Positions 1-61,129 of a stretch of 64,000 bases of DNA are shown here, one piece after another. Below the pieces are notes generated by a model that did not search any database, was not told the DNA's origin, and worked only from the letters and a program-made list of their open reading frames with translations. Origin of the DNA: Cyanidioschyzon merolae (lineage: Eukaryota); the NCBI GenBank assembly GCA_000091205.1, contig AP006491.2, one strand, 5' to 3'. Each line of letters starts with the position of its first letter. The stretch's first letter is position 1. A program made the position numbers and the translations under genes.

Positions 1-1189
1 AAAGTTCAGGATAACATCCTCGACGCCGATTGAGAGCACCTCGCACAGCTCGTTCAACAACGCCATTAACGCGACGGTATCCGTTTCCGTGTTGCCCTCC
101 GTGGTCAAGCTGCGCAGCTCGCTCGCGATGCGGCGCAGTCTTGCGGGGACGCTCGAGCCGCCAAAGCCCCCATGGCCAAACGATGGCAAAATCTCGCTCA
201 GACCGGCTCCTAGATGCCGTAGGAGGCCTTGAAGTGTTCCGCCAGTCTCGGGCGGAAGCGACGAAGGCCCCCGCGGTGATGCCCCGCGACGGCGCCCGCT
301 TTGGTGCTCTAGGGGAAAGCCCAGCGACGAGGCCTCGGGTATATCGTCGTTCGTTTCGAGCGGCAGCGAAGCGCTCGTATTAGGCTCTGTGTGCCGTCGG
401 TACCTCGAGTGGTAGCGCCGGCGGCTCCGGCTCTCGCTTGAGTTGATAGAGCTCAGGCCGTCGTTATCCGCTCCTGTACTATCTGAGCCGCCCAGCATTC
501 CGGCCGTGGCCTCGCGCAACGCCCGCTGACGTGAACGGCTCCGACGCATTCGCTTGGATCCTTGGCGCGTTGTTGCCGCGTGTGGTTCTTCCGCAGCGAT
601 TTTCGACTCACTTCTCGTTTCCAGCACTCTACCTACAGGTTCCTTCTCTAAACAAGCACTCCTGCGTTTCCGGTAGCGATGCCCGTCCAACGCCTGACTC
701 TCCACCGCGCGTTGAGTGTTCCGCGCAACCTCCGTTTTCTCGAGTGCAGCACTCTCTACAGCTCCTGCGTGCTGTCCACTCTCTACAGTTGTGGTCTCTG
801 CCTCTTGCCTTGCGAGTCCTGCTGCTCTCTTGGCCACGTTCGCACCCTCAGTGACGGTCTCTTCCCGTGCTCCTGTGTTCCGCTCCACGTGCTGCTGCGC
901 TCTGCTCAAGGCCGACCTTCTGCGACCCCGTGCCATCGACGCAGGGGCCCTTCTCGCCCTCAAGTCCTGACACGGAGAGTTCCTCGACTAAGCGCCGCTG
1001 GAACGCACCACAGCTCCTGTCCAGCGTCTCGTGGTTGTTCCCAACCGCACCCGCCGTAGAACAGCTACAGCGCTAAACGTCACAAACAGAATAGTCACAG
1101 CGAGCGCCGCCGCTGCTCCGAGAATAAAGCCGAGTTGAGCGTGCTTTTCGATCCCAGAAACGAAAGCGATCCGGAGGTGGCGCCGCACC

Positions 1190-1400
1190 CGCACACATAC
1201 ATACACGCATACACACATACACACATACACACATACACACATACACACATACATACATACACACATACATACACACATACACACATACATACATACACAC
1301 ATACACACATACACACATACACACATGCACACATACACATATACACACGTACACGCATACACACATACACACATACACACATACACACATACACATACAG
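1190..1400. repeat. (CACACATA)n / (CA)(TA)-type compound microsatellite, ~210 bp
   Basis: Read directly; it generates the YVCMCVC and HTHIHTY pseudo-ORFs on both strands. Confidence 0.95.
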
Positions 1401-2753
1401 ATTGATAGAGACAGATAGATGGAGTCCGAGAGAACTGCCAGTGCCGCAGCAGGCACAGGCGTTCATGCTGCTGCCTTCTGGACACGTGTGGATACAGGGC
1501 CTCTCATCAGCATCGTTCTGGGGTCCAGGAAGCCTCCGCATGGCGTATTCAAGTGCGAAAACGAGAGAGGTGGTGTTCTGAGGATGAGGAAGCGTTTTTG
1601 CGCTTTCAGCGAAGGCGATGTGTGGCGCCCAGTCCTGTGATTTCCCGCATGGAGCACAGCGGCGCACGGACGCCCCAGTGCCTGGGGAGCGCTCCATGCA
1701 TGCCGTACTTTCGGTACAAGGGCGGCGCTGCGGATAGCGTCGTTCGCGCATCCGCGATTGCCTTGAACTCCATAGAAAAGAGGCCAAACTCCTCCAGCCT
1801 TGGCGAGGTCTCGACGAAAGCGGCTACAGCGCCGTGGACATGCGGACACTGGAGCTGTGCAGGGGTTACCATGAACGCTGCGCTGACCTGCAGATTGGGA
1901 GCGGACGCTTTGCACCAGGGCCTCGCCAAATTCTATGCAGTGCAGCATCGATGTATCGATCCGGACTTGTAGGGGTGTGGGATTGCTGTCCGTATCCGGG
2001 GAAGCGACCGTCGTGCGGCTCCGCGCTTTACCGTTTCCCTTTCGTATCTTTGCCTCGGGGTTGAGGGCGAGATCGATCGAACAGTATGGCTCCACCCGAT
2101 GCCGAGTTTGCTGTGCGCGTGCATTGCACTCCTGGATGCGTTGCCCTAGACGCCATCACGCAGAGAAAGAACAGCTCTCCGCAGCCTCAATAGGCGTCGT
2201 CTCTAGACGGGTCATGAGCGGTACCCATTTCCCGATACGTCGCGCTCGCTTGTGCATACTGGGCGAAGTCGTCATCGGGCAGACGGTGCTCGCTGACTCG
2301 CGTTGCTATCGCGTTCTTCGGACCGTTCTGCATGCGCACTGAAAAGGCAGGCTCCCGAACAATCGCGTCTTTCATGTTTAAGCTTGGAATCGAGGATAGG
2401 TCTCTTGTCTGCCGATGCTCGCTGAAAAGTGGTCAAATCCGCAGCGTATTACAATGCCATTGCCCATGAGTGCATGCCTCTCACACGCGACACCCTGAAC
2501 GTATGCAGACAGCATGTTATCCTGCGCTTTGCCATAGTCTTTGTATTCCGTGCATATGCGGAACCAATGAAAATGACTGCCAAAATGCTCTCCATGAACG
2601 AACCGCATGCCACGGCACGTGAGGGGATCACAGGCTATCTTCGCCCCCGGTGCCTGTCATCCGATGCGGATGCATATCTTCAGAACGCTGGTGCGCAGGG
2701 AGGCTATGCTGCAGCTTCTCCAAAGGGGCGATCTTTCAACCTATTTCGCAAGT

Positions 2754-4148
2754 TTACCTCTTTTTCGAGGAGGATTTTTTCTCTGCTAGTTCGCGCAGCA
2801 TTGAAGCGCGTTTTCGCCGAGACTGCAGCGTATTCTCGGCAACTGCCGAGCCCCGCGTTTCGCTGAAGGGCTTCTCGAGAACAACTTTTGCTGCAGCGAA
2901 ATCCTGTGCTGGAGCGGCACCTGAGGTTTGCACGTCGAGTGCCTGTTCAGTGCCCAAGGTACCCTCCGCGGCCGCCGCGAGCGCTCCCTCTGCAAGTGTG
3001 TTGACTCGCGGCATGGTTCGGGTGACGTGGAACCGACGAACGTGATGATTCCGGCTCCATATGACCCGCGCCAGCAGCCGCAAATAGGCGAGACGCTCAT
3101 CCGGCGAGAGGCTGTACTTTTCTGCGTTGCGCACAAGCTCGACAAGGATGTAGAGAAAGCTCGCATAATTCGATACGACGGGCAACACGCGAACTCGTTT
3201 CGTCCCATATGCCGAGAGACTCGGTCTACCGCCTGGGCCTGGAACGAGCCCCGAGGGCGAAGCGGCGGAAGGCGCCGGGCTAGCACCTTCGACGAAAAAA
3301 TTCGTGGATAAGAGCACGAACGGCATATAGCTACCAATGAATGGGTTCGCACTCGACGCATCGTCTCTGCGGACAAGAATCAGACTTTGTTTCCGCGGTA
3401 AGAATGCTTCGATCCCTAAAATTTTGGCATTGAATCCGCCTCGCTTGAGCGATGCCACGCGTCCGAACAGGAACCGTGGCTTGCCTTCATCAAGCTCCTT
3501 TTCTTGGTCAGCATCTGGCGGCGGCTCCCAAAGGCGATATCGCTCCGCCACCAGCAGTGGCTTGTAATACTGTCCAGAATAGTCTAGCACGGGTTCCTGG
3601 AAGTCGTCCTCTGTGGCGATGAGAGGCATAATCACTTCGTCCCCAACTCGACCCTCACCGAGCACCTCCGCAGGCAGAAACGGCACTTCACGTTTCAAAC
3701 CAAAGTCAACGCGAATGTAAGGTAGTTCCGCAGCCACAATCCGCCCCCGCAGAAGCGTCCCGCTTTTGATCTCTGCGGCCATTGGAGAGCCCTCGAACGC
3801 GGTTCCAAAGTCAGTGGCGTCCGCCGCGTCATCGACAAACGACAGCGCGTTTTCGGAGGCGGCGCTCGACTCCGCCGCGGTGTCAGACAACCGACCTGAA
3901 GACGGAAACGTTCGCTCTGAGGGCTTCACCTCTTGAGCGGGCTCCGATGTAGCCTCCGAGCCTTGTTCGATCGATGAGCTGCGCTTGCTACCGTGGCCCC
4001 CAGCGGACTTCCCACTGTCGCTGTTGCTACTGCTACTACAGCGAAATCGGAACCAGGTATCGTACACGCGCCTCGATCCCAGACTTGTGGCAGCACAGCG
4101 GGTTCCAGTTCTCAAGTAAAGCGATGTGATAACCTTGCCGAGTACCAT
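2754..4148 (-). CDS. S1 RNA-binding domain protein (ribosomal protein S1-like, possibly organellar), hypothetical
   Basis: 464-aa ORF with two S1/OB-like segments (LLRGRIVAAELPYIRVDFGLKREVPFLPAEVLGEGRVGDEVIMPLIATED; FLFGRVASLKRGGFNAKILGIEAFLPRKQ) and a basic Ser/Lys-rich C-terminus. The family call rests on motif resemblance only. Confidence 0.35.
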   Translation of the reverse strand: MVLGKVITSLYLRTGTRCAATSLGSRRVYDTWFRFRCSSSSNSDSGKSAGGHGSKRSSSIEQGSEATSEPAQEVKPSERTFPSSGRLSDTAAESSAASENALSFVDDAADATDFGTAFEGSPMAAEIKSGTLLRGRIVAAELPYIRVDFGLKREVPFLPAEVLGEGRVGDEVIMPLIATEDDFQEPVLDYSGQYYKPLLVAERYRLWEPPPDADQEKELDEGKPRFLFGRVASLKRGGFNAKILGIEAFLPRKQSLILVRRDDASSANPFIGSYMPFVLLSTNFFVEGASPAPSAASPSGLVPGPGGRPSLSAYGTKRVRVLPVVSNYASFLYILVELVRNAEKYSLSPDERLAYLRLLARVIWSRNHHVRRFHVTRTMPRVNTLAEGALAAAAEGTLGTEQALDVQTSGAAPAQDFAAAKVVLEKPFSETRGSAVAENTLQSRRKRASMLRELAEKKSSSKKR

Positions 4149-21039: not shown

Positions 21040-21240
21040 TCATGAACGATGCGACGCCACCATCAGCGATCGATCGATTGATTTGACATAGTGTGGCGCT
21101 GCGTGCGCGCGATGCGGCGCCACCATCACCGATCGATCGATTGATTTGACGTAGTGTGGCGCTGCGTGCGCGCGATGCGACGCCACCATCAGCGATCGAT
21201 CGATTGATCTTTGATACTGAGCGCTGTCCTGCAGGTGCAC
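21040..21240. repeat. Tandem repeat, ~61-bp unit x 3
   Basis: Three near-identical copies of ...gatcgatcgattgatttgacgtagtgtggcgctgcgtgcgcgcgatgcg(a/g)cgccaccatca(g/c)c... Confidence 0.85.
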
Positions 21241-24966: not shown

Positions 24967-25093
24967 GTACGAGGCCTATGTTGGAGCAACACACTGTATA
25001 ATCGAGGGTGTTGCGCACAAGCCTAGCGGCGCTCAAATACTGAATACGTGTGCATACCCAAAATCGCAGGCGATAAGTGTCGGTCGATGCGCG

Positions 25094-25270
25094 TCACGCA
25101 ATACGCGTCATGCGATCTGCGCAGTGCGATGTGCGTAGGTCGATACGCATAGTGCGATGCGTGTAGTGCGATGCGTGTAGGTCGTTACGCGCAGTGCGAT
25201 GCGTGTAGTGCGATGCGTGTAGGTCGATACGCGCAGTGCGATGCGTGTAGTGCGATGCGCTCATGCAGCC
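25094..25270. repeat. Tandem repeat (15-bp gtgcgatgcgtgtag subunit within a ~45-bp unit, ~4 copies)
   Basis: Read directly; it produces the ASHYTHRTARIDLH peptide repeats in the spurious ORF 25094-26059. Confidence 0.85.
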
Positions 25271-26933
25271 TCGACAGCAGAGGCGCTGAACACTGGCAGC
25301 GGTGCTGATACTAGCCTTCGCAATCAACTGCATACCAATGCTGGTCATCAGGAACGATGCGCTGGCTGCTCGCAGCGTCAAGTGCTCCTGGCCGGCACCG
25401 AGCTGCTGGCGAGCATCCGTGCGCGCGCGCAGTCGACCGCCGCGACGCCACCGAGGCCTGCCAGTGTCCAAGTTCCAGACGCGCCGCTCAGGCGACCGCG
25501 GCCTCCTGCAACGTCCGAACCTCCCCTGGGGGCACAGATACGGGACCCCGCGGCACACGCGCCTCGCCGGAAGGCAGGTCCATAGGAGCGCCCACCGCGC
25601 CACCTCTGGTGACGGATACCGCTCCAGGTACAGGAGGCAATGGGGTTGCGGCACGCGTAGCAGCGCAGCGGATCCATTTTTAGGCTCGTGCTTGTGAATG
25701 CGCTCCCGAGACGCCGACGAGTGCCTCTGAACTGCATGCAGTCGATGTGCTTGCGCGCTCCCGACCTGCTCCCGAGTCGACAGCAACGCCAATCCTCTGG
25801 CTGGAAAGCAGCGCACTCGGGGCGAGGTATTCCAGCGGCAGAAGTGTGTGCCTGCATAGCGCCGTTGCTGCAGGCGCGACACCGCTGCGCCGAATCGCCC
25901 ACTGTGCTGATGCCGGTCCCGCTGCAGTCCTGCGCTTCGGAAAAGGCGCCCAGCCTCATCTTTGATGCCGTTCCTCATGAGCGAGTGCGACCAGAGATAG
26001 CACTGCACGTCACCGCAAGAAACATCACTGCATTGGCCTGCTGCACGAAAATCAGCCAAAATCGCGCACAGTCCGCGTCGCTACACCATTTGCGGACTCC
26101 ACGCGTGCCTTGGGTTCTGGAAATGTGCATGCTACGCGCCGAGGCATCCAGGTCAGCGCTGGCAAAGGCCTGCGAACCAACCGACAGCCGGTGCTACAAA
26201 CGTGGGCGCAGGTCGCTCATGGGCATGCGCTCGCGTTCGTGACGCTTCTCCAGTCGGTGTCGCGCGCTGCTCGTCATCGCGCACACGTTCTCGCGTAACC
26301 GCTGGAGGCGTGGATCGCAGCTCGCCATCACCGTAGTCGACAGCGAACAGCTCCCGCTCCACGAGTGTCGCCCGCCAGGGCATCGGCGCATTCATACGAT
26401 CGCAAAGCGCCGCGAACCCGCACAGCCATGTCAAAGAAACGGATCGCCTCCACTTGCCGAACTCGGGCGTGCAAATTAAGGTTTAGGTCTCTGCCCAGTG
26501 TCACGAACAGCAGCTTCTGCAGGCTTTCTCTGCGACTGCCTCCTTTTCCCATTTCTTTTCCGGATTCACATACGCCAATATCTCCGTTGCTTGTAACTCC
26601 GTTTACGCTGTCGAAGGATGTTGATGGCAGCGTTCAAGCTCGATTTCGACGCTCCGGATTGTTCTTGACGCATTTCGTGTACAGGCAGAAGTTGCGAACG
26701 ACAGCCGGCTTTGCCATTTTCATCTTCCTTGCATACATACTCGATGCCCTTGGACGCAGCGGTGTATCTTGACTGTGGCCAGATGGTCGCGAAGGTACCC
26801 CAAACTTCGCATTCCGGGTGCTGCTGTGTATCGGCGAAGCGATCGCTGCGTCGCTCGGGAAATGCCGGTGACAGGCAGAGAAAGCTTTCACCGATGCCGA
26901 CCGCGTTTCAGCTGCCGCTGTCGTATGCGGCGA

Positions 26934-27638
26934 TCACGTCTTTCTGCTGCATGATTCTTTTGAAGAGCTATCTGTCTGCTGCATACGCAAGCGCAAACTG
27001 TTCCATATGATGGACAATCTGTGGAAGCTGATTTTGTCCATGACGAAGTAACCATCAGAAGGATACCTCAGACCGGAGTACAAATCGATAAATCTTGATC
27101 CGTCTACGTTCTCTTCGTTCAGCGCTACGACGCACTCTGCACTGGAAGCGATCGCTGCGGTGACTGGTCTCCAAGTCCAATAGTCTTTTCTACTGTGAGC
27201 AGAACAGACGGGAGCCCTGTGGCAGCATGCACCGCGACGAGTATGAAACTGTTCGTGAATGCCGTTTCTTTGATGACCATAGAGAGGGGCGGATTTCTCC
27301 TTCGAACCAAGTCGATACTTTTTCTTGATAAGTGCTCTGTACTTTCGACATGTTGTTATGAACAAGTCGTCAGGGGCCCAAGTCCTATAGTTTACGTCGT
27401 TCATCCAGCGCCGCGAATCGCTGCGCGCATGAGTTGCATGGAAACAGAAAGATCGAACAGTTGAAGAACGCGTGACTTGAGCGTATTGCGCTTGAGGAAA
27501 ACAGAAGAATAGAGGCTTGTATTTATGAATCGAATAATGATTTAGGTCATTTTTACCAATCCTCATTCGATGTTTTCCTGAATCATCTTGTTCCCGATGA
27601 CGTTCCAAATTCCAACCGCCAAGTGTCAAAAGAGTCAC
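26934..27638 (-). CDS. Hypothetical protein in an AT-rich island (possible family with ORF 56340-57101)
   Basis: 234-aa ORF in an AT-rich block next to a Fanzor-like fragment. Weak by-eye resemblance to the 56340-57101 ORF (RFIDLYSGLRYP vs RFMIRAVFARYP; ALNEENVDGSRF vs NLKNHSTMNLERF). Confidence 0.2.
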   Translation of the reverse strand: MTLLTLGGWNLERHREQDDSGKHRMRIGKNDLNHYSIHKYKPLFFCFPQAQYAQVTRSSTVRSFCFHATHARSDSRRWMNDVNYRTWAPDDLFITTCRKYRALIKKKYRLGSKEKSAPLYGHQRNGIHEQFHTRRGACCHRAPVCSAHSRKDYWTWRPVTAAIASSAECVVALNEENVDGSRFIDLYSGLRYPSDGYFVMDKISFHRLSIIWNSLRLRMQQTDSSSKESCSRKT

Positions 27639-28135
27639 CCCGAGAACACGACCGGGAATCCCTAAACGAAATATGAATCCATAAGCCCATATTGCTGCAC
27701 TTTCATGTCAAGGCTATCCCTGGAGAGCATGCTCGGAACAAAAAATCTCGTGGTACGAACAGAGCGATCAGTGCTGTGCCACTTTAATCTCATATGCGCT
27801 GATAGACTTTCACATGCATTGCGTTCCACACCCAGGGGAATGGCATCAAATGCTTCTTCACGGTTGATAGTGGATGCGTTCGAAGTGCGCTCAGTTGAGG
27901 AAACAAAAATTCAAGGGAAACTTATGGACATGAAAGTCGGGGATCCTGGAGCCCGATCATCGCCGAGCGCCGACTAAAAACGAGAAAACCCTCTCCTCGC
28001 CGATCGTCGAGTGAAAAAGGGCAAGCGACAAAGAAGAAGAGAAGGAGAGCTTGACGAGAAAAGTGCTTTGCCCGAGGAGACAATGACGAGAATGCAGTGG
28101 CCATGAGGGCACCAGCTTGAGGACGCCTTGCACTG

Positions 28136-28348
28136 GTGAGTTCAAACAGCGACAATGAACGCAAGGAGTTCGTGAACCGAGACTTCACCGCCGCTATCTA
28201 TCTCAGAAGATGTGTGGAGCTGACCACGAGACCCGAGGAGCTGACGCCATCCAACTTCCTGGGTTACACTCTAATGCCCGCAGCGCACAAGGAAAAGCTG
28301 AAACCGTTCGCAGCGGGCCAGTCAAACAAGTCTAGGAGGCGTCCGTGA
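28136..28348 (+). pseudogene. TnpB/Fanzor-like RuvC-III C-terminal fragment (5'-truncated copy)
   Basis: KEFVNRDFTAAIYLRRCVELTTRPEELTPSNFLGYTL...KEKLKPFAAGQS parallels the C-terminus of the 55055-56128 ORF (MEFVNRDFNAASNIRRCAV...PELTRVNFVGQPL...GKLKPFVWGRS). An in-frame stop lies just upstream, at 28118-28120. Confidence 0.5.
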
Positions 28349-28360
28349 TTACATATGTAT
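28337..28360 (+). repeat. Perfect 10-bp-stem hairpin (GTGATTACAT-atgt-ATGTAATCAC) overlapping the stop codon of the Fanzor-like fragment
   Basis: Palindrome read directly from the sequence. Confidence 0.6.
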
Positions 28361-28457
28361 GTAATCACCATGGTCGTGGAGATTTTTTCGTTTTACTGAT
28401 CACCCGTACCCGCCCGCGCCTTGCGGAGCTCTCGCCCAAATCGCTGTCGTTTGCGCT

Positions 28458-32184: not shown

Positions 32185-33665
32185 ACTACCTTCCCTCTAG
32201 GCACTCAACGACTGTTGTCGATAACGAGCGTGCACCAGCGCACAGCGCAGAAGCATCGATTCGCTTCCGCCGCGCACGCATGAGAGGCACCCGCGCGTGC
32301 ATCCATCGTCCTGCATGGAGGACGTGTCACGCGCGTGCGGATGCAATCGGGGGCGTAGGCATCGCTGCGGGGATGGGGGGGGGCCTAAAGCGGCATCGCG
32401 CCCCCGCACTCGTGACAGATAAACGTGGGACACTGACCTGCTCCGCATGGTCACGTTTTTTGAATTTCCCCTTAAACATTGTTTTAAATTTGTAGCCTCG
32501 ACATTCGACGTGCTTTGAAATGGCCGAGGGACTCCCACGTACTTCGGAGATTCTTGGTCGTGCTTTTTTTGGAGTGGCGCGACTGACACTTTTCTGCTAG
32601 AAATTGTAGAGTCACCGGAGTCAAGATTATTCGCGACGCTCCTGAACACGGGGTCGTAAAACAGCCGATATCCGTATCCGATGCACACGCGCAAGCCTCC
32701 GCGCTTCTCAGTTCCTCACATGTAGCATGCTCAAATCATACTTGCTTTAGGTTTCGGCGCTTCATATTCCAGGCAACTCGTGGACGCTGCAGTTCGCCCC
32801 ACGTGATTGACGAGAAACGGTACTCGGCGTCGTTCGCTGACACGTTCCTCACAAGCCCATGCCGAACGTTCTTCGAACCACTCACGTCAAATTAGACTGG
32901 AGCCCGTTCGAAATACAAATCATCAGCTCTCTGCGGGCATCAAAGAAACGGAATTCGACAACTGCATGGTACCTCTTATGAAATATGCGATCGGAGGCTC
33001 CCGTCTCCTCTGTTCACGTGGAACATGAGATGCTGTGCGTGAACCGCAGCGACCTTCTGAGCATGGAATTTTCGGACCGGAACGGGAGGCAGTGAAGCCG
33101 GGACCTGAACCCTATCACCAACATCCCTCTACTGCTTAATTCGAGCTGGATGGGCATCGGCGACCAGCATATCTACAGTCTGAGAGAAAAGAGAGCAAGC
33201 CGAAGCAGATGCAGTGCAAATCCTGCACTGCTTGGTGTTCATCACAGCATGAAGAGACCCGAACGTTAGCATCTACACCCGAATGATGTAGGTGGACTCA
33301 TTCAACTTTGTCCTGACTTTGGTACGGATCGCGAGTTGTGGCGACACCAGAGGCGATTTTTTCGGTCTCACAGCACGTTTCCACGTAGAGCAGAGATTCC
33401 CTCGTGCGCGCGTCGCATCAGGACCCGGAAAAGCGTGCATCATTCCAAGCCCTATTTCCAAGATCCACGATCCAAACCTCCCTTTGGAGGAACGGGTCGT
33501 TTCCCACGTTCCACCGTGTGCCGAGCCTACAGGAAGCGTCTATGGTAGTCGTTGAACCGTCGGTGCCGACGCAGCACAGATACAGAACGGCTTTGGTAGA
33601 CCGTTGCGGGAGTCGGCTTCAGAACGCCGCTCGCTGAAGCACGTTCGGCGCTTGAGCAACCTAGT

Positions 33666-36343: not shown

Positions 36344-36579
36344 GACTTGCGGACAGTTCGGGTGATACGGCCGCTTCCAGCGGGTCACAGGAGCGAAGGC
36401 TCTCGACGACCGCCGGGTAAATGAATATCCACGCGCCGATCCCTGCCAGCCCTTTTCGACCGGCCGCTTCTATCGGTTTGCGTTTATCTCGAGGCACACT
36501 TCGAGCGTTAGAAGCTGCCGGACGAGGTTGGCTCCCGTCAGCTCCGCGGGTCTCGTCGTCAGCTCCGCAGGTCTCGTCG

Positions 36580-36822
36580 TCAGATATGGCTGGCGGGGCT
36601 AAAGTCTCGGTTCACGAACTTTATGCGTTTATCGCCACTGGTTGAACTCATCAATGCAAGGAGTCCTCGAACTCGTGCCCTCAGTGCCATGTGCTGCTCT
36701 GACAGCTCTGTGTGCTTTTCTACCGCCGAGGCGCTCCGCTGGCTTCTCTCTATCTCGATCTTCTCAGGTGTAGAGCCCAGATCACTCCTTGGACTTCTCA
36801 TCTCTTCAAAAAATGAACCCAC
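36580..36822 (-). pseudogene. TnpB/Fanzor-like RuvC-III fragment
   Basis: ALRARVRGLLALMSSTSGDKRIKFVNRDFSPASHI parallels ERRAKMRRLLESVSTINDKKLMEFVNRDFNAASNI in the 55055-56128 ORF. Short ORF with no upstream RuvC-I/II. Confidence 0.45.
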
Positions 36823-36899
36823 ATGTTTATGCCGTTAGGTAAGGACCTTACCGGATGGAGAAGGACTTGCACGAGGAAGACTGCACGTGCCCCGGTGTG

Positions 36900-37640
36900 T
36901 CATCGTGTGCTGAACGCTTCAGCGATTCGCTCAGAGGAGCGATCATTACGTTTCACGATAGCAAACACTCCCTCGACGCGGTTGAACGTCGAAGCGTACG
37001 GAGGAATGAAAAGCAGCTCTACTTCCCGATAGAATCGGCAAAAGCTCGAACGCAAGGGCGATTGGTGAAATGCTACGTTGTGTGATAGGTGGACATCACC
37101 AGATGTCAGGCGGAGAGTCTTTAATGATTCGACAAAGTGATTGCTGTCGTATGAGCCTTCTCTACGAGCGAAACTGAGGTCGCCAAATATATCCACTGCA
37201 GCCAGAACGGAGAATATCATTCTTCTCTTCGAGTTTGATCTCTCATATAGCGAGTTGTCCTCTCTGCGAGTAGCCATATACGCTTCGATCGTTTCGTCCG
37301 GAGAAAGTCCAATTGACTGAAAAAACAAACCGTCGTCCCTGTGCTTCTCACCGATCGCGACATTCCAGGAATTCTGTCGTTGCGATTTCGGTGGAGGATG
37401 TTCTCGCTTGAACTAGGACTCTTTTTTGCGACTGTATTCCAGTGTTTTCAGGATCACACGTACATCCTGTTGAGAAACATAGAAGCCCGCGGCGGCTGCC
37501 ATCGTCGCTTTTTCCTTCCGTAACGTGTTCAACGGATCATATTCTACATTGACCGCAGGCACACTTTGAGCATATCGGTCCTCGGCTCGAAGCGCATTTC
37601 CTTCTTTGTTTCGGTGTTCCCGAACCATCTGAGTACAGAG
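36900..37640 (-). pseudogene. Degenerate DDE transposase (Tc1/mariner-IS630 DDE_3 superfamily) remnant
   Basis: C-terminal motif ELLFIPPYASTFNRVEGVFAIVK resembles the DDE_3 tail (LLFLPPYSPDLNPIExVW..VK). The upstream SWNVAIGEKHRDDGLFF resembles the first-D region (W..V.FSDES.F) but with GEK in place of DES. The ORF is broken, and the track starts it at a TTG. Confidence 0.45.
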
Positions 37641-39599
37641 ATATGACCGACCCCGAGGATGAATGCAGTCCTCCTTTCGCTGTTCAGTAAAGACTGTATC
37701 CTACAGACACTTCGTCTACGATCTATACGGTACAATGCATCCTGGTTTTTCTGATTTCCTGCTGTGCACTGTGCGAAAGCATACGACTGCACGCAGCGGG
37801 GTTGAAACGACCTCGAGTTCGTTGAAAGACGACAAGTGCGCACTCGGCGACACCGCGCCAACGGCACTTGTACGGGTCTGTGTGCGTTGCTTCGGATGCT
37901 GCTCGTACAGGTTCCATCGCGAGACGAACGCGCCTCTGGTACCCGCGAACCGACATACGCTGATGTTCACGACACCCGGGACATGACACTTGATTCTTAC
38001 GACGCTTCAGCCGTGACAAGACTGGATACATATGCATCGGATTATGGACGAGGAAGAGATCGCTCACGCTCGAGTCGCCTTTGCATGGGATGGTGCACCT
38101 GGAGCGCGCTAGAGTCGTGGTGCGACGCAGCGTATGACACCACGCACTGTCTCCATTGGGCGCTGCGCGAAGACCCATCCATGAGAACGTCCACGCGTGC
38201 AAACAACTCTGTTTTCTGATGCGGCCGGGAGTGCTCGTGGTTGCGCGTATCGCACGCAACTGCTGCTGCGCTCCGGTTGCTCGAAGCAACTTGTTTATGT
38301 TGAATTTGCTGAGCGTCATACAGGATCGGGCTCGAGTGCCAAGTGAATAGGAATTGCACAGACAGGTGTGCTCCGGATGCCGCGATCGGTGCCGCATGTC
38401 GTCGCCAGCGAGCGTCTAGCATAATCTCTCGGCCTATTTCATTGGTTTCCTAAGGATAAAGCAAGTGCCCAGTGACTTGCAAATGCCGTTGTGCGATTTG
38501 AATTCCTTGCATATACAGAAACAGGCTCCTAACTCGCCGTTGAATGAGGTCGCGCCCGTCCAGCAGTTCCGATTTTTACGAAGCCACTGCATGCAGCACG
38601 TTCATGAGGCGCGCAGCCGCCAGACGTCGAGATCCCATCCATGGAGCGCGATCCTGTGAGCCCGGCAGCGTATATATGCTCGTTACGTAGAGACAGAGTT
38701 ACCAGTCATCGATCATGCACCCAGATGGAAACGAAAGCAGACCCAGCAACCAAGCGTCTGCGTCGACAGGGGAAGCAGCGTGTACCTCACGTGTCGCTGG
38801 CTTCAGTTGAGAGCGAATCCATCCTCCAAGCGTGAGGAATCCGTCACGGCCTTGTGGATTTGGCTCCAGCTGGTGACCTGCGATCTGAAGACCCGCTCAG
38901 ACGATCTTCGGGACTGCGGCGTACATACACTGTGATGATTCGCGGTTCTGCGCGTGACCAGGAGTTTCCATCAGCATTGTCGGTCGTCGGAAGAGGCATC
39001 GGCCACGGCCGCGGCATGGTCCACGACGCTCCGTTCGGAAGCACAACGCGTAGCAATTCGAAACGCGGCCGAGTCGCCCGGCGTACAAGCGTGCGCACAC
39101 CGCCCATCGTCCGCGGTCAGGATGTACAGAAGCCCACCGAGTTCACGCGCTCTTCTACCAGGAAGCTGTCCGAGTGTAAAGGTTAGTGACTGTCCAAAAC
39201 CAGTGATTCTTCCAAACGGCTGCGTACTGGCGACCACCGGTGTGCGATTGCCTTGCACTCAGAAGTAGTGACAAGAGATGATCCACTATTTGACTCTGTC
39301 AGCGCTTTGGGTAAGAGCCCTAGCTCCGAGAGATTCCCAGTTCGAGCGTACTCATCTTCGTGCAAGTGCAAGTCGTTCCAGATCGCCAACGCGAGAAGCT
39401 TCACTTACGCTCTCAAAACACGAACACTAGTTAAAGTTGCCCACACACCGAGGAAACAAAGAGCCTCCTGGGAATCCGAGTTATACGTACGCTTCACAGA
39501 ACGTCCGTGTAATGCAGGGGAGCTTGCCGGTTAGGGTCGCAGCGGTGCGTCCCCGGTGAAACTACTGGGAAGCGGCGCGCGCATGCAGATCCGAACGTG

Positions 39600-39775: not shown

Positions 39776-41184
39776 CATGACTGTATCATGGCATGCGCAG
39801 CTTCGAGGCGCGCATGGATCAGCCGCAAAGCTGTCTCCCCAGTGAGCAGCAAACGCAAAGTCGCTGCACCGATCGAACCCCAATTCCATAACAGGACCGT
39901 GACTATTTTGGTCTCTGCAGAGGCAAAGCATGCGCTGAATCGCGAAGTCCATAGCGTTGTAGTCGGCAGCTCGATTGCATCTGAGAGCATCCGCTTCCGG
40001 GCATGCCTCCTAGACCAAACCAGACCCGCAACAGACATCGATAGGTGCTGCCACGTTCTCCGTACTGCGTCTAGGGGTAGAGATCGGGGCTGAAGCATTG
40101 GTGCCTGGGGCGAGCCTGCTGTTGCGGCTTGCATGGACGCTCATCATTTGGCACAGTTGCTTATCGTGGCTGGGCTAGTCGCCAACACGAATGAACCTGG
40201 ACAGAGGCGCGGGCGGTCCTCTTTCCACTTCGCATCGCATGCGCAAATCCCGAGACCAAAACGATCCTCCTTCGTACGCATGGGGCGCATACTCCAGCTT
40301 ATATTGCCTCGGCTGATGAGAAAATGCTTCGCGCTCTGAATTCGTCCACATCCGACAATCAGTTTGAGGTACTACACATTGAAGCCCGCATCGCCTCGGC
40401 TGATGAGGCAAATGTTCCACACTTTCAAAGCATCCACGTATAACACTCCATATGAACGCCCACGCGCTCTTTGGACTCAAGCAACCCGCGCCTTCCCGAC
40501 CGTTGCCAGCGTAGCAGCGATACCAGTGGATCACCTCATCGACAGTGACCACCATTCATGGTTGCCACACCCTTAAAAGCGCGTTTCGCGGAGCCACGAT
40601 GCTGCGCACCTCGCTTCCTCAGTGCAGCGTCGGCTTCTGATCTGACACACCTGCCAACACCGGCAAGCGTCTGCGTTCATCGAGCGACGTTGTCGCCTCT
40701 GTGGCGAACGCGCATCAATCCAGCGAGTATCGCGTGTCGCCACGGACGCTTCCGGCACGCTGGACGAACGATAGAGCGTAAGGTATGTCCAGTTTCTCCG
40801 AACACAAGTATGGATATTCGAGCTTGGAACTAGGATACAGAACGACGAACGCTTTCCCAGATGCGGATATCGATCGCTCCGTCCGAGTTCCCGAGCCTGT
40901 CAAACAGAAACAACCCAGCGTCGCTGTGCGCCAATTCGAGCCGCGCACGCTGCGGGCGAAATCGCGGCAGTCGCCCGGGAGTCCGGCGCCGCAGCCGTGC
41001 ACCCGTCCGTACCCATCCACTCGTACTGGGAAGGTGCGCTCGACTGGAACACGCCTCGCCTCGCCTCGCCGTACGGCAACATCGGAGAGTTCTTCAGTCG
41101 GCAGTCTCCCGGAATACTGGAAAGTTTTCTGCTGTCAACTGGTGCGTAGGTAAGGTTTTCGAACCGGGCCTCAGGGAAGGTTTG

Positions 41185-46417: not shown

Positions 46418-47556
46418 GTTCAGGCTTGAGCCGGAACCGGCTCAGTGCATGCCGCTCTCGTCGCACAGCGCATAGAGAGGTCACCGGAGACCTCGCAGGG
46501 TGGCACGCGCCACACCCGTTGACGACCCGTTTCGCACGCCCGCTCGCTGTGAAAAGTTGACGGCACGCGCTGCTGCGGTGCGTTGCGCTCCCGCAGTCCA
46601 CAGCGCAGTCCAGCGGTCCACTTGGTTGCGAGACTGCTCTGTTCTGGGCACGAGACCCATATCGAAGAGAGATAGAACGGGTACTAGTTTATTAACTCGA
46701 GTGTACACACTAATATTTGAATATCTTCCAACGATTATCAACTTTGGTATTTGTAGGCGCTTTCTGTGGCACCCTCCTTTGCTTCCCTCGCATCTCCGAA
46801 TGGACATAGGGCAATCTTTCCTGCATCGCTGGCTCTGTTGTCAGCAGTCGATGGATGTTGATGGCAGCGTGCAAGTCGGGTATTCTCCGATTCTGGCTCA
46901 TGCGGAAGCATTGAATGCACCGGTGGTAGCCATGAAATCGGGACGCGAATGCGATCATCAGTACGCATCGACTGTTGGCAACGTAACGGACTTGGCTCGC
47001 GTGACCCGCGCCTGCGGGAAGCCGGACATTAGAGCGGAGAAAGGAGTATCCGACGCAGAACAAGGCCGCAAACGCTGATGCTGAATGACAGAGGAAAGAA
47101 ATACAAACATTAGATTGTACACTCGAGTTCGTGAAGTGGTGCCCAGCCCATTCCACGCCCGCGTTGGTGTAAAAAGTCGAAAAATCTATGCGATGGACGC
47201 AGTAGCAGCTGCGTTCGTAGACACCTCGACTGGGTGCCTGAACGGTCGTGCAGAAGCGTCCATTTGGAGATCATCTGGATCCCTGTACAAACAAGTCATT
47301 TAAGTACACTATTGTAATCACTGAGTCATCTTGGACTCGAGCGTACCACACCCGCGAGCGACGCCCTGATGCGCCCGCGCAGTCGGAGCGCAGGCAGCGA
47401 TTGGTGCAGGGATTCGCAAGCAATGGACGCAAATCACTTTGCTGCTCATCGCTTCCGGAAGTATCGTTGGTGGACGCAACTGCACGATAGTGTCCGGCTG
47501 CCAGCGTACATCTATCGAGGAAGCATTGCGCCTTTTTCATTTGATTAACTATTCAT

Positions 47557-49890: not shown

Positions 49891-50039
49891 GGTGTGAAAA
49901 TGCCGCTTCAGGGAAGCTACCGCTGTGCTCCTCGATCTTGAAGCATATGTGGACACTAAAACGATAAACGCTCGGCAAACCGTAGCGTGCATAGAGACAC
50001 CCAGTCACAAACGCTTCCCAGCAAAAATTGCCAGCTGCC

Positions 50040-50260
50040 TGTTGTCGACTTCAGGTTATCCAGGAGCAGAACGAGCCTCAGAGGCTGCACCACAAGTTTG
50101 GATTGCGACAGCGCCTCGAGTCCCGTCTTCGGCACCGCACATTTTTCGGATATGAATGGCGGCGTCCGGGTTGCGGTTCGCGACCTCCATGCGTTTTTTG
50201 CCTCTGGTTCAACGCCTTAACGCAAGGATTGCTAGAACTCGTGCCCTATGTGCTACTACA
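50040..50260 (-). pseudogene. Highly degenerate TnpB/Fanzor-like RuvC-III remnant
   Basis: Reverse-complement translation gives GKKRMEVANRNPDAAIHIRKMCGAEDGTRGAVAIQ, parallel to MEFVNRDFNAASNIRRCAVMAKRAPELTRVNF. The adjacent DNA (50196-50250) is ~75% identical to 36640-36690, the equivalent part of the 36580 copy. Frameshifts are present. Confidence 0.35.
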
Positions 50261-50664
50261 GTCTCGTCATCGTCCCATCGGACAAACATCGGTCCTCTCC
50301 TATCTCTCGTCTCCATCTTCTTCTTCTTCGTTACTTGCTCCTCTCTGCTATATGGTCAGCGACACGAGGATTTTTTCTTTTTGTTTCTGTTGAATCCAGC
50401 GACATCGAATCCTCTGGGATCCGCGACTTCTACGTCCATACATTTCCCCTGGATTTCCATTTCTTCAAATCAAGGCACTTGCATTGCGTCAGCTATAGTA
50501 CGCGAAATAGCATCTGACGACACGCACCTCAGCGTGGCGCCTCGTGGAAATGAACGCTTGTAGAAAGAATCGGCGTGCGAACGTATCGACTCGGTGGCGT
50601 AGACGCCGTCGCTGGCGCTCCGGTTAGCCGGCGTCGCGCAGCAGCGCCTGCGCCACATGAGCTT

Positions 50665-51180
50665 TCCGCTCCCGGGAATCGACATAAACGTTGTCTGGGG
50701 TACGCTAAGATTACCGTTGCTCTGCTCCTGATTTCTGTATTTCTGTATCTGGGAATTTGCGTATTCGCGTATCGGGGAATCGACATAAACGTTGTCTGGG
50801 ACACGCGTAGATTACCGCTGCTCTGCTCCTGATTTCTGTATTTCTGTATCTGCGAATTTGCGTATTTGCGTATCGGGGAATCGACACAAACGTTGTCTGG
50901 GACACGCGTAGATTACCGTTGCTCTGCTCCTGATTTCTGTATTTCTGTATCTGCGAATTTGCGTATTTGCGTATCGGGGAATCGACACAAACATTGTCTG
51001 GGGTACGCTAAGATTACCGTTGCTCTGCTCCTGATTTCTGTATTTCTGTATCTGCGAATTTGCGTATTTGCGTATCGGGGAATCGACATAAACGTTGTCT
51101 GGGGTACGCCTAGATTACCGTTGCTCCGCTCCTGATTTCTGTATTTCTGTATCTGCGAATTTGCGTATTTGCGTATCGCC
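50665..51180. repeat. Minisatellite, ~100-110-bp unit x ~5
   Basis: Repeating unit gggaatcgacataaacgttgtctgggg/acacgc(g/t)tagattaccgttgctctgctcctgatttctgtatttctgtatctgcgaatttgcgtatttgcgtatcg, with a few SNPs between copies. Confidence 0.85.
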
Positions 51181-52992: not shown

Positions 52993-54666
52993 CTAAAACG
53001 TTGCAGAGTCCTCTAGGTCGTCGTCCGGCAACGCCACGAGATCTCTGTACCCGCTCAACAAATCCGCGAAGCGTTGCCGCTGCCGAATGATGCGCCAACG
53101 ATTACCCTGAACCATGAGCTCGCCCGGTAGCACCTTCATATTGTAGTTGCTCGCCATGGACATGCAGTATGCTCCGCTGTCCATTACAGCGAGACCCGTG
53201 CCGGGTGCGGGTAGCGGAAGCACCCGCGCTTTTCCCAAGAAATCACTCGATTCGCAGACTGGCCCCACGATGTCGTATGTCGCCATTTGCTCGCCGGCTA
53301 CTCCGGGCTCAGTCAGGGTGATCAACTGGTACGCTCCGTACAGCGCTGGTCGAATCAGCTCCGCCATCGATCCGTCGACGACGATGAAGCGCTTATCGCC
53401 ATTCCGTTTGACTCCAATGACCCTACACACCAGGATGCCGGCATTCCCAATGAGGGAACGCCCCGGCTCAATGATGAGGGTTAGGTCGCGTCCCGCTAAA
53501 CACGGCCGAATCGCATCGATGAGCTCCTGCGGGGTCGGGATGCGTTCGCCTTTCCGCTCATAATCGATCCCGAGACCACCACCGATATTCAGGAAGCGAA
53601 TACTGTGGAAACCACGTGCACTGATTTCGTCGATCACTTGAAGCATGGTCACAACATTGTCGTGAAAAAGTTCCACTTTTTTGATGGTGGACCCCAGATG
53701 CGAATGGACACCGACCAGCTCGACCTGTGCTTCATTTTGTCTGATTCGATCCAGAAACCAGCGCAGTTGATCGGTGCGAATACCAAACTTGCTCGTTGCA
53801 AGCCCAGTGCTCACATACGGATGCACCTGGGGATCGATGTCAGGGTTGATGCGGAGCAGGACGCGTGCCTTGCGTCCTTCGCGCTTCGCCGCCGCTAAAA
53901 TATTCTCGAGATCGAACTCCGAGTCGACGTTGATGAGACACTCTGCTCGAACGGCAAGGGCGATTTCCTGAGGCGTTTTCCCGTTTCCGTTGAAGACCGT
54001 GCGTCGCATATCGAAGCCGGCGAGTCGCGCTAGGCGCAGTTCGTTGCCACTCACCAGAACTGCCCCACATCCGCGTTCACGCACAAGCTGCATAATCATC
54101 AAGTTGTTGTTGGCCTTGACAGCGTAGCCGATGATGGCATCCATACCTGCCAGCGCTTCCTGGTACGCTCGCACGTTCGCCTCAATGCGGCTCTGCGAGT
54201 AGAGGTAGAATGGCGATGCCTCAGGTCCCAGGGCGTCTTGAATGTCCTTCACGCGCACCTCCTCGCAGTACAGGAACCCGTCGCTTCCCACTTCGAACTG
54301 GGGTGCTGGATTCTGCACCGCAGGCGCTGCAACGACCTGCATTCGAAGCAGCTGCGAGGCCTGCAGGCCGCTAGACGAGGCTTGACTCTCGACGCCGTGA
54401 AAAGGTCGACGGCACCAAGCCCCGATCGTCCTCCGTCGCCGTCGTGAGCACGCACCCGACCCCAGACGCAACCAAGACGCCGACGCCTTGGCGTATACTC
54501 CTACTGCAAACATAGCCGCCCGAAGCAAGTCCAGTGCGGCTATAAAACGAACGTTGTGACGAGTTGGAAGCGTAGGCACACGCGTCCTGCCGTGTCTACC
54601 AAAAGCGAAATTTGCGCTGCGGGTGCGCGGCGCCGGTTTTTTTTTCATTGGACAAAAGGTTGCCAC
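52993..54666 (-). CDS. lysA: Diaminopimelate decarboxylase (LysA; PLP-dependent Orn/DAP/Arg decarboxylase family) with N-terminal extension
   Basis: PFYLYSQSRIEANVRAYQEAL...IGYAVKANNNLMIMQLV (PLP Lys in YAVKAN), GSG..VVSGNEL, HSHLGSTI, GGGLGIDY, and the C-terminal beta-barrel EPGRSLIGNAGILVCRVIGVK...CESSD. 557 aa. Confidence 0.8.
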   Translation of the reverse strand: MATFCPMKKKPAPRTRSANFAFGRHGRTRVPTLPTRHNVRFIAALDLLRAAMFAVGVYAKASASWLRLGSGACSRRRRRTIGAWCRRPFHGVESQASSSGLQASQLLRMQVVAAPAVQNPAPQFEVGSDGFLYCEEVRVKDIQDALGPEASPFYLYSQSRIEANVRAYQEALAGMDAIIGYAVKANNNLMIMQLVRERGCGAVLVSGNELRLARLAGFDMRRTVFNGNGKTPQEIALAVRAECLINVDSEFDLENILAAAKREGRKARVLLRINPDIDPQVHPYVSTGLATSKFGIRTDQLRWFLDRIRQNEAQVELVGVHSHLGSTIKKVELFHDNVVTMLQVIDEISARGFHSIRFLNIGGGLGIDYERKGERIPTPQELIDAIRPCLAGRDLTLIIEPGRSLIGNAGILVCRVIGVKRNGDKRFIVVDGSMAELIRPALYGAYQLITLTEPGVAGEQMATYDIVGPVCESSDFLGKARVLPLPAPGTGLAVMDSGAYCMSMASNYNMKVLPGELMVQGNRWRIIRQRQRFADLLSGYRDLVALPDDDLEDSATF

Positions 54667-54764
54667 AGGCCAGCGATCCCCGACTAGGCCTTTTTATCAG
54701 CACGCGGTGAAGCAGCCATCGATCCACGCCCTACTTCCAAGTTCCAAAACCCATAGATCTTCTC

Positions 54765-54810
54765 GGGTATGCTGGTGGTTTCATAATGTCTATCGTACGC
54801 CGAGCCTGCC
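54765..54810. repeat. ~45-bp dispersed repeat copy (left boundary of the AT-rich island)
   Basis: gctggtggtttcataatgtctatcgtacgccgagcctgccgtgagcg is ~75% identical to 57676-57722 (tctggtcgtttcatacgtcctagcatgtgccgagcctaccgaaagcg). Confidence 0.5.
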
Positions 54811-55054
54811 GTGAGCGTTTAAAATAGCGCGTAAAGCACCTCTGCAGTCGTGGCACGGAGACAGAACTGGGTTGCCATACCAGAGAGGGCGTCGGCTCGA
54901 GACCAAGCTCATCCATGCCAAAGCACACTAAGCCTATCCGAAACTGCGCCCTTGACCACCACCACCACCAGCAGCAGCAGCAGCAGCAGCCGCGAACGCT
55001 TTCCAAGCATCAAACGCTGCATAACCGGTGCACAGTAGCGGCGACCGACGCGAC

Positions 55055-56128
55055 CTAGACGAAATATCTCCCGCCGACATGCAGACGCCTAAAGGTCTTT
55101 AACGACCTGCCCCATACGAATGGCTTCAGCTTCCCCTTGTACAATTCGGCCCTGAGAGGTTGTCCAACAAAGTTGACTCGTGTCAACTCCGGGGCTCTCT
55201 TTGCCATTACTGCACATCTCCTGATATTGCTGGCGGCGTTAAAGTCCCGGTTCACAAACTCCATAAGTTTCTTGTCATTGATTGTACTTACTGATTCAAG
55301 TAGCCTTCGCATTTTCGCCCTCCTTTCCATTTGGTCGTCTGTCAGCCGTCCGTACTTTGCTATATCCTCAGGGCTCCGCTGGCACTTTTCCATATCGACC
55401 CTCTGGGGTGTACAACCCAGTTCATGGTGCGTATACGATGTTCGGAACTCATCTACAGGTATTGTAACAAAACGCCGTGCGCACTCTATGTACGTTCTCG
55501 TAGTTCGAGCTGGTGTACACCCGTTTTGGGTCTTCCAGCGCCCTGCTCCGTATGCTACTACGAGCCTCTGACTTTCATCCTCTTTGAGGGCACTCAACGG
55601 ACTGAAAAAGTTCGCGAACGCCCGCTGCCTCCCACAGCATAGATTCATACGCAAACGAGCACACCGGGGCTTTGTATACTCTTTCCACAGCGCCTCCCAG
55701 TGAGCAGCACGAACTTCACTGAACTCCCGAAAAGCATCAAAGTCCGCTCCGCGGCTCGTCACCTCGCTCAAGGCTTCCAGGTGATCCTTCATTCCTGAAT
55801 TCCATGTCTCAGTTTTCTTTCTTGCATTCCTTGTACCGGATTCTCGATAGTACCTTGCTCTCGAGAACCTCAACAGACGCATGTCTTTCTGACGCAAGTT
55901 GCCGGCAGTACCATCTTCCGCACGTTTGGGTACTGCGATGGTTATGATATTTGTGTTTCCGGGGTTCACACCTACCGCAAAGTCGTCACCGTGCACTTTC
56001 TGCATCGCAGGATCCGCCACCTTCTCATCTTCATGCTTTGTCACGGGCGCAGCCGAGGGCGGAACTGGACGATCCGCCTTCAAGCGCCGATAGCGTACAC
56101 ACATGGCTACTCCATCGGTTTCGATCAT
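55055..56128 (-). CDS. TnpB/Fanzor-like RuvC nuclease-fold ORF (eukaryotic OMEGA/IS605-OrfB homolog); RuvC-I Asp replaced by Asn
   Basis: RuvC-I-like FAVGVNPGNTNIITIA (cf. GIDPG); bridge and RuvC-II region LVVAYGAGRWKTQNGCTPARTTRTYIECARRFVTIPVDEFRTSYT (cf. vaiGdw...V..VdEyrTSk); degraded Zn-finger (GCTPQ...KCQRS); RuvC-III MEFVNRDFNAASNIRR (cf. nRDvNAAiNI). Sits in a distinctly AT-richer ~2.8-kb island. Confidence 0.55.
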   Translation of the reverse strand: MIETDGVAMCVRYRRLKADRPVPPSAAPVTKHEDEKVADPAMQKVHGDDFAVGVNPGNTNIITIAVPKRAEDGTAGNLRQKDMRLLRFSRARYYRESGTRNARKKTETWNSGMKDHLEALSEVTSRGADFDAFREFSEVRAAHWEALWKEYTKPRCARLRMNLCCGRQRAFANFFSPLSALKEDESQRLVVAYGAGRWKTQNGCTPARTTRTYIECARRFVTIPVDEFRTSYTHHELGCTPQRVDMEKCQRSPEDIAKYGRLTDDQMERRAKMRRLLESVSTINDKKLMEFVNRDFNAASNIRRCAVMAKRAPELTRVNFVGQPLRAELYKGKLKPFVWGRSLKTFRRLHVGGRYFV

Positions 56129-56339
56129 CCCAGTGAGTACTTTTGTTTGCTCACTTTGAGACGTTTGAAATCGAAGATATGCTTCCAGTACGTCTCCCGG
56201 TTTTCACCGGAGAACTCCTACCTGTTAACATTGAACTCGGGACTGGTCTCCTTTATGATGCCTTGGAGGACTCTGGAGCTGATAGTCACAAAATGTGACT
56301 TGATGGTGCACAACGGAACGCCATTGAAGCGCTTACCCA

Positions 56340-57101: not shown

Positions 57102-57662
57102 CTCGTCGTACAGCCGTCTTTCTTGTCGCCTTCGACATAGGGCCTCTCCCGTTTTGATTCTTTCTCTCTTCCGTTTCTTCTGGACTTGGAATTTTTTTTG
57201 TTTTTTCTGGTAGCCGGCGACACTGGGCCTCCAGGATTGTCGACTTGCTCCTACATAACTTTCCTTTTTTAGTTTTTTTAAAAAGAATACTCTTTAAACG
57301 CTTCTCTTATATACTGCGAAAAAACACTCGAGTATTTTTACTTGAGGGTTGAAACAGAAATGAACTGAAAACTATACTTTGCTACGACCTCAACGGAAAT
57401 CCGACTTTTACAGCTGAGCAACACGCTCCTGCTCAGGATCACGTTTCCCTTCAACAGCGGCTTACGTGTCGCGTCTCACGCCTGCCTGATCCCCCAGTTG
57501 CGCTCACCGGGCGCGATTCTCTTTTTCATAGACAAGACGTTTACTTGTGCCAGCATTCTCCGATTACGCGCATTTTTCTTTTCTTACCATTTTTTATGTG
57601 TTTTTTTCAGTGTGCGGTGACGTATCCATCAACCCCCTACTCCCAAGTTACATCATCTAAAC

Positions 57663-57722
57663 TTCTTCTCTGATATTCTGGTCGTTTCATACGTCCTAGC
57701 ATGTGCCGAGCCTACCGAAAGC
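57663..57722. repeat. ~35-45-bp repeat: direct with 54765-54810, inverted with 61130-61197
   Basis: acttcttctctgatattctggtcgtttcatacgtcctag has a reverse-complement match at 61160-61197 (acttcttctcGgatattctggtcgtttcatacgtccta, 1 mismatch in 37 bp). Confidence 0.7.
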
Positions 57723-57749
57723 GACAGCAATGGCGCCTATAGAACATGC

Positions 57750-61100: not shown

Positions 61101-61129
61101 CTGCTCCAGCATTTAAGGCGCAAAGGCGG

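Follow-up and report, generated by a model that had tools for sequence, protein, structure and literature searches.

Open reading frames beside Fanzor-like sequences in Cyanidioschyzon merolae as probable remnants of two unrelated transposable element families

Described Fanzor elements and the two reading frames

CMe-1A of Cyanidioschyzon merolae is an element of about 3 kb, present in about 150 copies that each share about 80% identity with the consensus (Bao and Jurka 2013, Mob DNA 4:12, PMC3627910). Its consensus of 3169 bp encodes CMe-1, a Fanzor1 protein of 734 aa, and in 2013 this was the one Fanzor family listed for C. merolae, with its classification left open (PMC3627910). PUl-1 of Pythium ultimum, 3620 bp in length, has terminal inverted repeats (TIRs) and a TA duplication, and it carries a transposase together with Fanzor1 (PMC3627910). 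A pairing of a transposase with an RNA-guided-nuclease-type gene is also found in the TnpA–TnpB systems of IS200/IS605 and IS607.

Here, we analyzed two open reading frames, orfA and orfB, in a stretch of 64,000 nucleotides from C. merolae contig AP006491.2, hereafter the window. The first, orfA, occupies 26934–27638 on the minus strand and has 234 codons, starting from GTG, with the first ATG at codon 25; orfB, of 253 codons, occupies 56340–57101 on the same strand. The original prediction, made from the sequence alone, had given these positions and strands for both frames, which we confirmed, and had described both frames as lying in low-GC islands, which also holds: GC is 0.47 around orfA and 0.49 around orfB as compared to about 0.57 in the window, or, by stretch, 0.47 at 27–28 kb and 0.46–0.52 at 55–58 kb. 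It had further noted no recognizable domain in either frame, and a direct Pfam scan of orfA, orfB and the Fanzor ORF downstream of orfB indeed gave nothing useful; neither orfA nor orfB had a match, and orfA had none at E<=1.

Transposable elements (TEs) are very scarce in the C. merolae genome. The window is part of a red-algal chromosome, gene-dense, nearly intron-free and about 57% GC, and three of its long ORFs are identical to the glucose-6-phosphate dehydrogenase, calnexin and GDP-dissociation-inhibitor-like protein of C. merolae 10D. The GC-rich window also contains other spurious ORFs, longer than 300 codons.

We consider it very probable that orfA and orfB are unrelated remnants of two old TE families, which lie in TE-tolerant intergenic islands of lower GC. 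They do not make up a new accessory-gene family, and orfB is part of a protein that was already published in 2013.

The 55–57 kb frame and the CMe-1A Fanzor1 pseudogene

By BLASTP, orfB matches residues 53–293 of the published CMe-1 protein with 74% identity over 242 aa (E=2e-127). It lies within a copy of the CMe-1A Fanzor1 element at 54999–57515 on the minus strand, which is 84% identical to consensus positions 648–3166 by blastn. As the original prediction described, orfB is directly upstream of a Fanzor ORF on the same strand; this C-terminal ORF (55055–56128, minus strand) keeps the RuvC-II motif VDEFRTS and the RuvC-III motif NRDFNAA intact. A query for the locus that joined orfB, a short middle-frame ORF and the Fanzor ORF found 58 relatives, and the full-length ones, P0042 (752 aa), P0086 and P0091, span 95% of the joined query as a single protein. 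An HMM of the 58 homologues is colinear with the minus strand from position 3 to position 671, unbroken and in three frames, with positions 3–263 at 56367–57152, positions 259–340 at 56137–56382 and positions 328–671 at 55148–56176.

The suggestion that orfB is the N-terminal exon of the Fanzor gene was right about the protein, since orfB does encode its N-terminal part, and wrong about the exon. A working, intron-containing gene, with orfB as a 5' exon spliced to the downstream Fanzor ORF, would agree with the common strand of the two ORFs, with the gap of 210 bp between them and with their matching one protein. However, coding homology continues across this "gap", and HMM positions 3–671 correspond to 668 codons of DNA; an intron is excluded because there is no extra DNA between the colinear pieces. 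The breaks are instead small indels of 1–2 nt and two in-frame stops. In alignment to the published consensus, on the minus strand, the copy has its first stop in the start region, as codon 2 (57251–57253), followed by indels at about 57201 (-2 nt), 57151 (+1), 56378 (-1) and 56141 (-1), and a second stop at codon 346 (56218–56220). In addition, the RuvC-I aspartate, Asp431, is now asparagine at about 55966, where GADPGNT has become GVNPGNT. Taken together, these defects make a spliced, working gene extremely improbable.

The gene reads as three separate ORFs because of the frameshifting indels and in-frame stops, and the 1-nt deletion at about 56378 accounts for the early end of orfB. Neither an intact reading frame nor a complete RuvC D-E-D triad is found in this copy. 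Judged from these alignments, orfB is shown to be the N-terminal (first) third of a known Fanzor1 gene turned pseudogene. The copy differs from the CMe-1A consensus in this pseudogene state and also in lacking its own first 647 bp, in place of which it is flanked by TE-N2_CMe-like pieces in the other orientation.

The CMe-1 family profile had a sole match among PDB sequences, the Guillardia theta Fanzor1 (9cer), which was weak (E=0.51) and confined to the RuvC-I region; full-length CMe-1 relatives had no match in Pfam, and P0086 had none among PDB sequences. RNAalifold on 18 distinct Fanzor 3' ends, whose old copies align poorly, returned no consensus structure.

The 27 kb frame and the inverted-repeat element around it

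In a word-indexed search of 5.8 billion proteins, orfA has one cluster only, P0100, at 97% identity. The source of P0100 is metagenome contig L001, which is syntenic with the window and 98.99% identical to it, so that the cluster represents the same locus. Within the window, decayed orfA paralogs with stops lie at 4.9–5.4 kb and 32.8–33.0 kb and are part of a DNA repeat of about 1.3 kb. An exhaustive HMMER search with orfA found 60 short, decayed predicted proteins with 26–47% identity; Pfam DDE_3 (PF13358) matches 8 of them (best E=9e-7), the NCBIfam IS630 transposase model matches 4, and the majority protein consensus of these relatives matches DDE_3 with E=2e-9. A profile search with the family alignment (A1) added almost nothing from the word-indexed database, and the family profile had no match among PDB sequences.

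The repeat that contains orfA, which we call family X, is a TIR element. A census by consensus peptide gave 68 loci on related metagenome contigs and, among them, 33 distinct copies; these come from Cyanidioschyzon-like algae, not necessarily strain 10D. There are 3–4 copies in the window. The ends of all X copies are sharp and lie about 320 bp upstream of the protein match and 400–480 bp downstream of it. The DNA consensus, built from 29 copies, has TIRs of about 25 nt, in which the 5' end CACCCGTGTCAGATTAAAATGGAAC agrees with the reverse complement of the 3' end CACCCATGTCAGAATAAAATGGAAC at 23/25 positions; a search of single copies found no TIRs, which are visible only in the multi-copy consensus. 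TA stands beside both ends of the consensus, while individual copies are too decayed for a target-site duplication to be read. Duplication of a TA target site is expected for Tc1/mariner elements.

The X consensus contains a transposase ORF of 261 codons with helix-turn-helix regions and the motifs AIDETAF and IMDNIAFH, ending in ...YSPRGSPRRSP. It matches DDE_3 with E=1.3e-10 and 41.7 bits (cut-off 28.6) over profile positions 3–113 of 146. Its catalytic triad is incomplete, with the aspartates of AIDET and IMDN kept and the third residue missing, because the transposase stops at "YSP", at profile position 113. Immediately downstream, in another frame, is a Fanzor part that reads VIVGYG...VVDIWEHLTTAKCHRC...RLCMKC...RNRDLNAAINIL. 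This part matches PF07282 with E=2.7e-7 and 31.1 bits (cut-off 26.3), with CHRC...CMKC followed by the RuvC-III sequence RNRDLNAAINIL; PF07282 is the Cas12f1-like TNB domain, formerly OrfB_Zn_ribbon. The order, strand and spacing of transposase and Fanzor part are fixed in all X copies examined. Comparing the X copies in six frames did not by itself identify the coding frame.

In 29/29 copies, the X Fanzor part consists of the last ~155 codons, with RuvC-II, zinc ribbon and RuvC-III and without WED/REC and RuvC-I; it is a fragment, not a gene. It is distantly related to CMe-1 (E=3e-5), and its peptide had no match among PDB sequences.

The copy that contains orfA, copy A, is a full-length element of about 1.37 kb at 26423–27800 on the minus strand, in which the four consensus segments (5' end, transposase, Fanzor part and 3' end) follow each other unbroken. 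Decayed relics of its TIRs lie at about 27776–27800 (5') and at 26423–26442 (3'). Downstream of orfA, on the same strand, is a TnpB/Fanzor-type C-terminal relic (26482–26902) that matches the X consensus peptide by tblastn with E=2e-11 and 2e-7. It retains remnants of RuvC-II, zinc ribbon and RuvC-III, including "LNAAINILR" at about 26611–26637, and it has frameshifts and has lost the RuvC-III aspartate. Two other copies in the window lie on the plus strand: C5 (4684–5952) is decayed, with several stops and frameshifts, and C32 (32407–33323) is internally deleted.

Comparison with the ancestral transposase frame explains how orfA comes to be open. Residues ~1–29 and ~140–234 of orfA are in the transposase frame, whereas residues ~30–135 are in an alternative frame. 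The transposase frame of copy A reads MVIKETAFTNSFI across the alternative stretch, with at least four stops; orfA escapes these stops because two indels splice the open alternative frame between the in-frame stretches. Its last ~95 residues, back in the transposase frame, read WTWRPVTAAIASS...VMDKISFHR. The first catalytic motif of copy A is IKET, which is mutated and out of frame in orfA. As a mosaic across two frames, orfA would therefore have no function of its own.

Could orfA nevertheless be a real gene, either a domesticated transposase fragment or one born new from TE sequence? It offers 234–257 open codons in DNA of 47% GC, its frame is open in the related strain as well (P0100, 257 aa), and its 234 codons, or 257 from stop to stop, make it joint longest among the open runs of 29 X copies. 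However, the two frame changes relative to the ancestor, with the region of the first catalytic aspartate mutated and out of frame, argue against a gene, and stop-free runs of at least 200 codons are found in 4/29 copies. Across the 29 copies, open runs are equally long in sense (median 141 codons) and antisense (median 147). Between the window and the L001 strain, orfA differs at 7/705 nt, and 5 of these changes are non-synonymous as compared to 2 synonymous; this rate of divergence equals that of the flanking non-coding DNA. In calnexin, 3/1980 nt differ between the same strains, all synonymous. A GTG start in a eukaryote, the absence of orfA from the NCBI protein set of 10D and the makeup of its cluster, which holds JGI metagenome calls only, also speak against this reading, which we regard as very improbable. 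At the level of sequence, orfA is shown to be a frame-hopping relic derived from a decayed IS630/Tc1-mariner transposase, and it bears no sign of constraint.

Two other candidate origins of orfA were rejected. One was that orfA is an ORF antisense to the degraded remains of a Fanzor N-terminal half on the plus strand; neither full-length Fanzor proteins nor the Fanzor HMM have a match at 26.4–28.0 kb on either strand. A kinship with the non-LTR RT element at 58–61 kb was hinted at by a weak tblastn match (E=0.11), and more sensitive blastn did not support it.

The Fanzor-like RuvC-III segment described at 27–28 kb lies outside family X. It belongs to D1, an internally deleted CMe-1A derivative at 27802–28390 on the plus strand, in which consensus positions 787–1062 are joined to 2818–3081 (blastn); Fanzor HMM positions 586–671 match at 28025–28279. 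Derivatives of the D1 type are present again at other loci. The layout noted in the original prediction, with orfA on the strand opposite the Fanzor-like segment (28136–28348), is correct, and of the explanations that it offered, coincidence is the one that fits this pair. A CMe-1 trace occurs within 2 kb of X in 6/28 distinct copies with adequate flanks, as compared to 24% expected from trace density (0.067 traces per kb at the loci and 0.0625 per kb across the window), and side, strand and distance (163–1614 bp) all vary between the neighbors. The adjacency is coincidental because the proximity of X and CMe-1 matches the density expectation and the arrangements vary; orfA and the opposite-strand CMe-1 fragment are shown to be independent insertions side by side. 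Two abundant families have therefore met in TE-tolerant intergenic DNA.

These results bear on the central proposal of the original prediction, that a single family of unknown ORFs accompanies Fanzor copies, perhaps as an accessory gene comparable to TnpA beside TnpB. Both ORFs lie in TE islands with Fanzor-like segments and both lack a direct Pfam match, as such a family would have it. However, the weak mutual similarity that had been reported is at chance level. Pairwise alignment gave no significant similarity, the best BLASTP HSP having E=0.66, and the stretch of the proposed common motif, RF[IM]x5[LA]RYP, gave E=5.3. The "RYP" is a private substitution in each of the two ORFs and ancestral in neither family: the orfA family consensus reads SKFLDLFSSLDFP at this site and the published CMe-1 protein reads ERFMIRAVFALYP, so the short motif is missing from both. 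Moreover, orfB is a piece of the Fanzor protein itself, the orfA family consists of DDE_3 transposases, and X copies do not track CMe-1 traces. The one-family claim is refuted because orfA and orfB are not homologous and belong to different repeat families, and a new accessory-gene family is left with almost no probability. The comparison with TnpA survives in part, as orfA does descend from a DDE transposase; this was, however, the transposase of an independent TIR element with its own Fanzor remnant.

Family Y and the origin of the transposase–Fanzor link

A second link between a transposase and Fanzor sequence is found at 36–38 kb, in a copy of about 1.44 kb that we assign to family Y (36385–37835, minus strand). 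Here, an IS630/Tc1-type DDE_3 transposase relic (36903–37547) lies upstream of a CMe-1 fragment of the last ~115 codons (36431–36784) on the same strand. The Y consensus encodes a complete small DDE_3 transposase (E=5e-20) with the D, D, E triad in VDET, LLDNVAFH and NPIE. The transposase is followed by 40 bp resembling a Fanzor 5'UTR and start codon, and then by the CMe-1 end, whose ~115 codons are 80% identical to consensus positions 2737–3092. At about 10 loci, the Y transposase is directly upstream of the CMe-1-derived piece on the same strand, and at least two different deletion breakpoints exist among the loci. The Y transposase is a homolog of the one in X (26% identity, E=4e-15). We sought the TIRs and ends of family Y, and none were resolved.

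We infer that X and Y arose from composite mariner–Fanzor elements by internal deletion. The ancestor would have been a cut-and-paste transposon with the order TIR, transposase, Fanzor gene, TIR, in which the DDE transposase would have moved the composite element with the Fanzor gene as cargo; internal deletion would then have produced X and Y. A search of 0.86 Mb of related sequence found no full-length composite parent, with a transposase and a complete Fanzor gene between TIRs.

The missing parent is also what one would expect if X were a chimera, in which a Tc1-like element was joined by chance nested insertion or recombination to a Fanzor element unrelated to it, the product being amplified afterwards. 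The junction in X is abrupt, with the transposase "YSP" running straight into the Fanzor "VIVGYG", and nested insertions do occur (P0113). On the other hand, Y has the same order and orientation as X, with a complete transposase, a 5'UTR-like stretch and a deleted Fanzor ORF, and it has at least two breakpoints at different loci; the transposases of the two families are related; and composite mariner–Fanzor1 elements are documented (PUl-1 and PGv-1; PMC3627910). A chimeric origin of X thus seems unlikely, though it is a more serious contender than the gene-based readings of orfA and orfB. We tentatively propose, with somewhat less than even weight, that Fanzor1 genes in Cyanidioschyzon were carried and mobilized by Tc1/IS630-type transposons, of which X and Y are what is left.

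The arrangement in X and Y resembles PUl-1, in which the DDE_3 transposase is likewise upstream of the Fanzor sequence on the same strand, and X shares the presence of TIRs, of about 25 nt, as well. The X transposase matches the PUl-1 transposase with E=1e-6, and the X Fanzor part matches the C-terminus of the PUl-1 Fanzor1 with E=2e-8. In contrast to PUl-1, X and Y are only about 1.4 kb long and keep the last 115–155 Fanzor codons, X lacks the end of its transposase, and all X and Y copies are decayed, with about 60–70% identity to each other. With IS200/IS605 and IS607, they share the combination of a transposase and an RNA-guided-nuclease-type gene in one mobile element. However, the X/Y transposase is neither a Y1 nor a serine recombinase: it is of the DDE class and IS630/Tc1-mariner type, in elements with TIRs, and the X/Y pair survives only as deletion derivatives.

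The papers searched gave no description of Tc1/mariner-type elements in C. merolae. A by-product of our analysis is an annotation of decayed IS630/Tc1-mariner elements in this alga with a DDE transposase physically linked to Fanzor sequence, which would place the C. merolae Fanzor1 family among mariner-borne Fanzors. The X and Y consensus sequences can be used for masking and for tracing the spread of Fanzor nucleases. The case of orfA also illustrates how frame hopping can produce, as an artefact, a long open frame within a TE island. If X and Y did carry Fanzor1 genes, the CMe-1 Fanzor, unclassified in 2013, would gain a transposase partner, and the C. merolae genome would hold a second Fanzor lineage. 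The Fanzor 3' end, kept in X, in Y and in the 580-bp D1 minis, would then suggest a cis-acting right-end/guide-RNA module, not a leftover.

A small derivative of CMe-1A

Two sequences of approximately 580 bp, at 27802-28390 (+) and 49949-50537 (-), are copies of D1, an internally deleted derivative of the Fanzor1-encoding element CMe-1A in which consensus positions 787-1062 are fused to ~2818-3090. Further D1 loci were found on related metagenome contigs (L002, L003, L014, L030, L033, and L052). D1 recurs at several loci with an identical 5' boundary and therefore behaves as a small non-autonomous family, with the Fanzor 3' end retained. A tandem array of five 101-bp units (50674-51178; head to tail, ~95% identity) adjoins a D1 copy, and shorter tandem arrays are located at 1184-1413, 21047-21208, and 25070-25259.

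CMe-1A 5' pieces and an adjoining retroelement

Positions 1-635 of the CMe-1A consensus, equated with TE-N2_CMe (Bao and Jurka, 2013; PMC3627910), are represented by pieces at 33426-33618 (+), 40743-40891 (-), 54651-54901 (+), 57636-57739 (+), and 60772-61240 (-). Such pieces border the CMe-1A copy as well as the degraded retroelement that immediately adjoins it (58168-61073, +). This element is apparently of the non-LTR type, and its RVT_1 reverse transcriptase (E=1.3e-13) is broken into several ORFs.

Transposase–Fanzor repeats of families X and Y

The family Y copy (36385-37835, -; ~1.44 kb) carries, in order on one strand, a complete relic of an IS630/Tc1-type DDE_3 transposase (36903-37547, -) and the last ~115 codons of the CMe-1 Fanzor gene (36431-36784, -). 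This layout is repeated at approximately 10 metagenome loci, where the deletion breakpoints differ. Family X, a decayed transposase–Fanzor element, is also represented by two mutually inverted fragments of its Fanzor-like 3' part, at 46655-46929 (-) and 46925-47108 (+), which are without the transposase part.

The family X consensus contains a second frame of ~335 codons without a stop (nt ~385-1393; about 26480-27490, minus strand, in copy A), overlapping the transposase frame by ~170 codons. This frame, which is read by residues 30-135 of orfA, the ORF inside copy A, and by many database “proteins”, is taken as a putative effect of codon composition. In P0113, a 342-aa gene-caller ORF, a CMe-1-type Fanzor C-terminus runs directly into family X sequence; this junction implies an insertion of one family into the other at a different locus.
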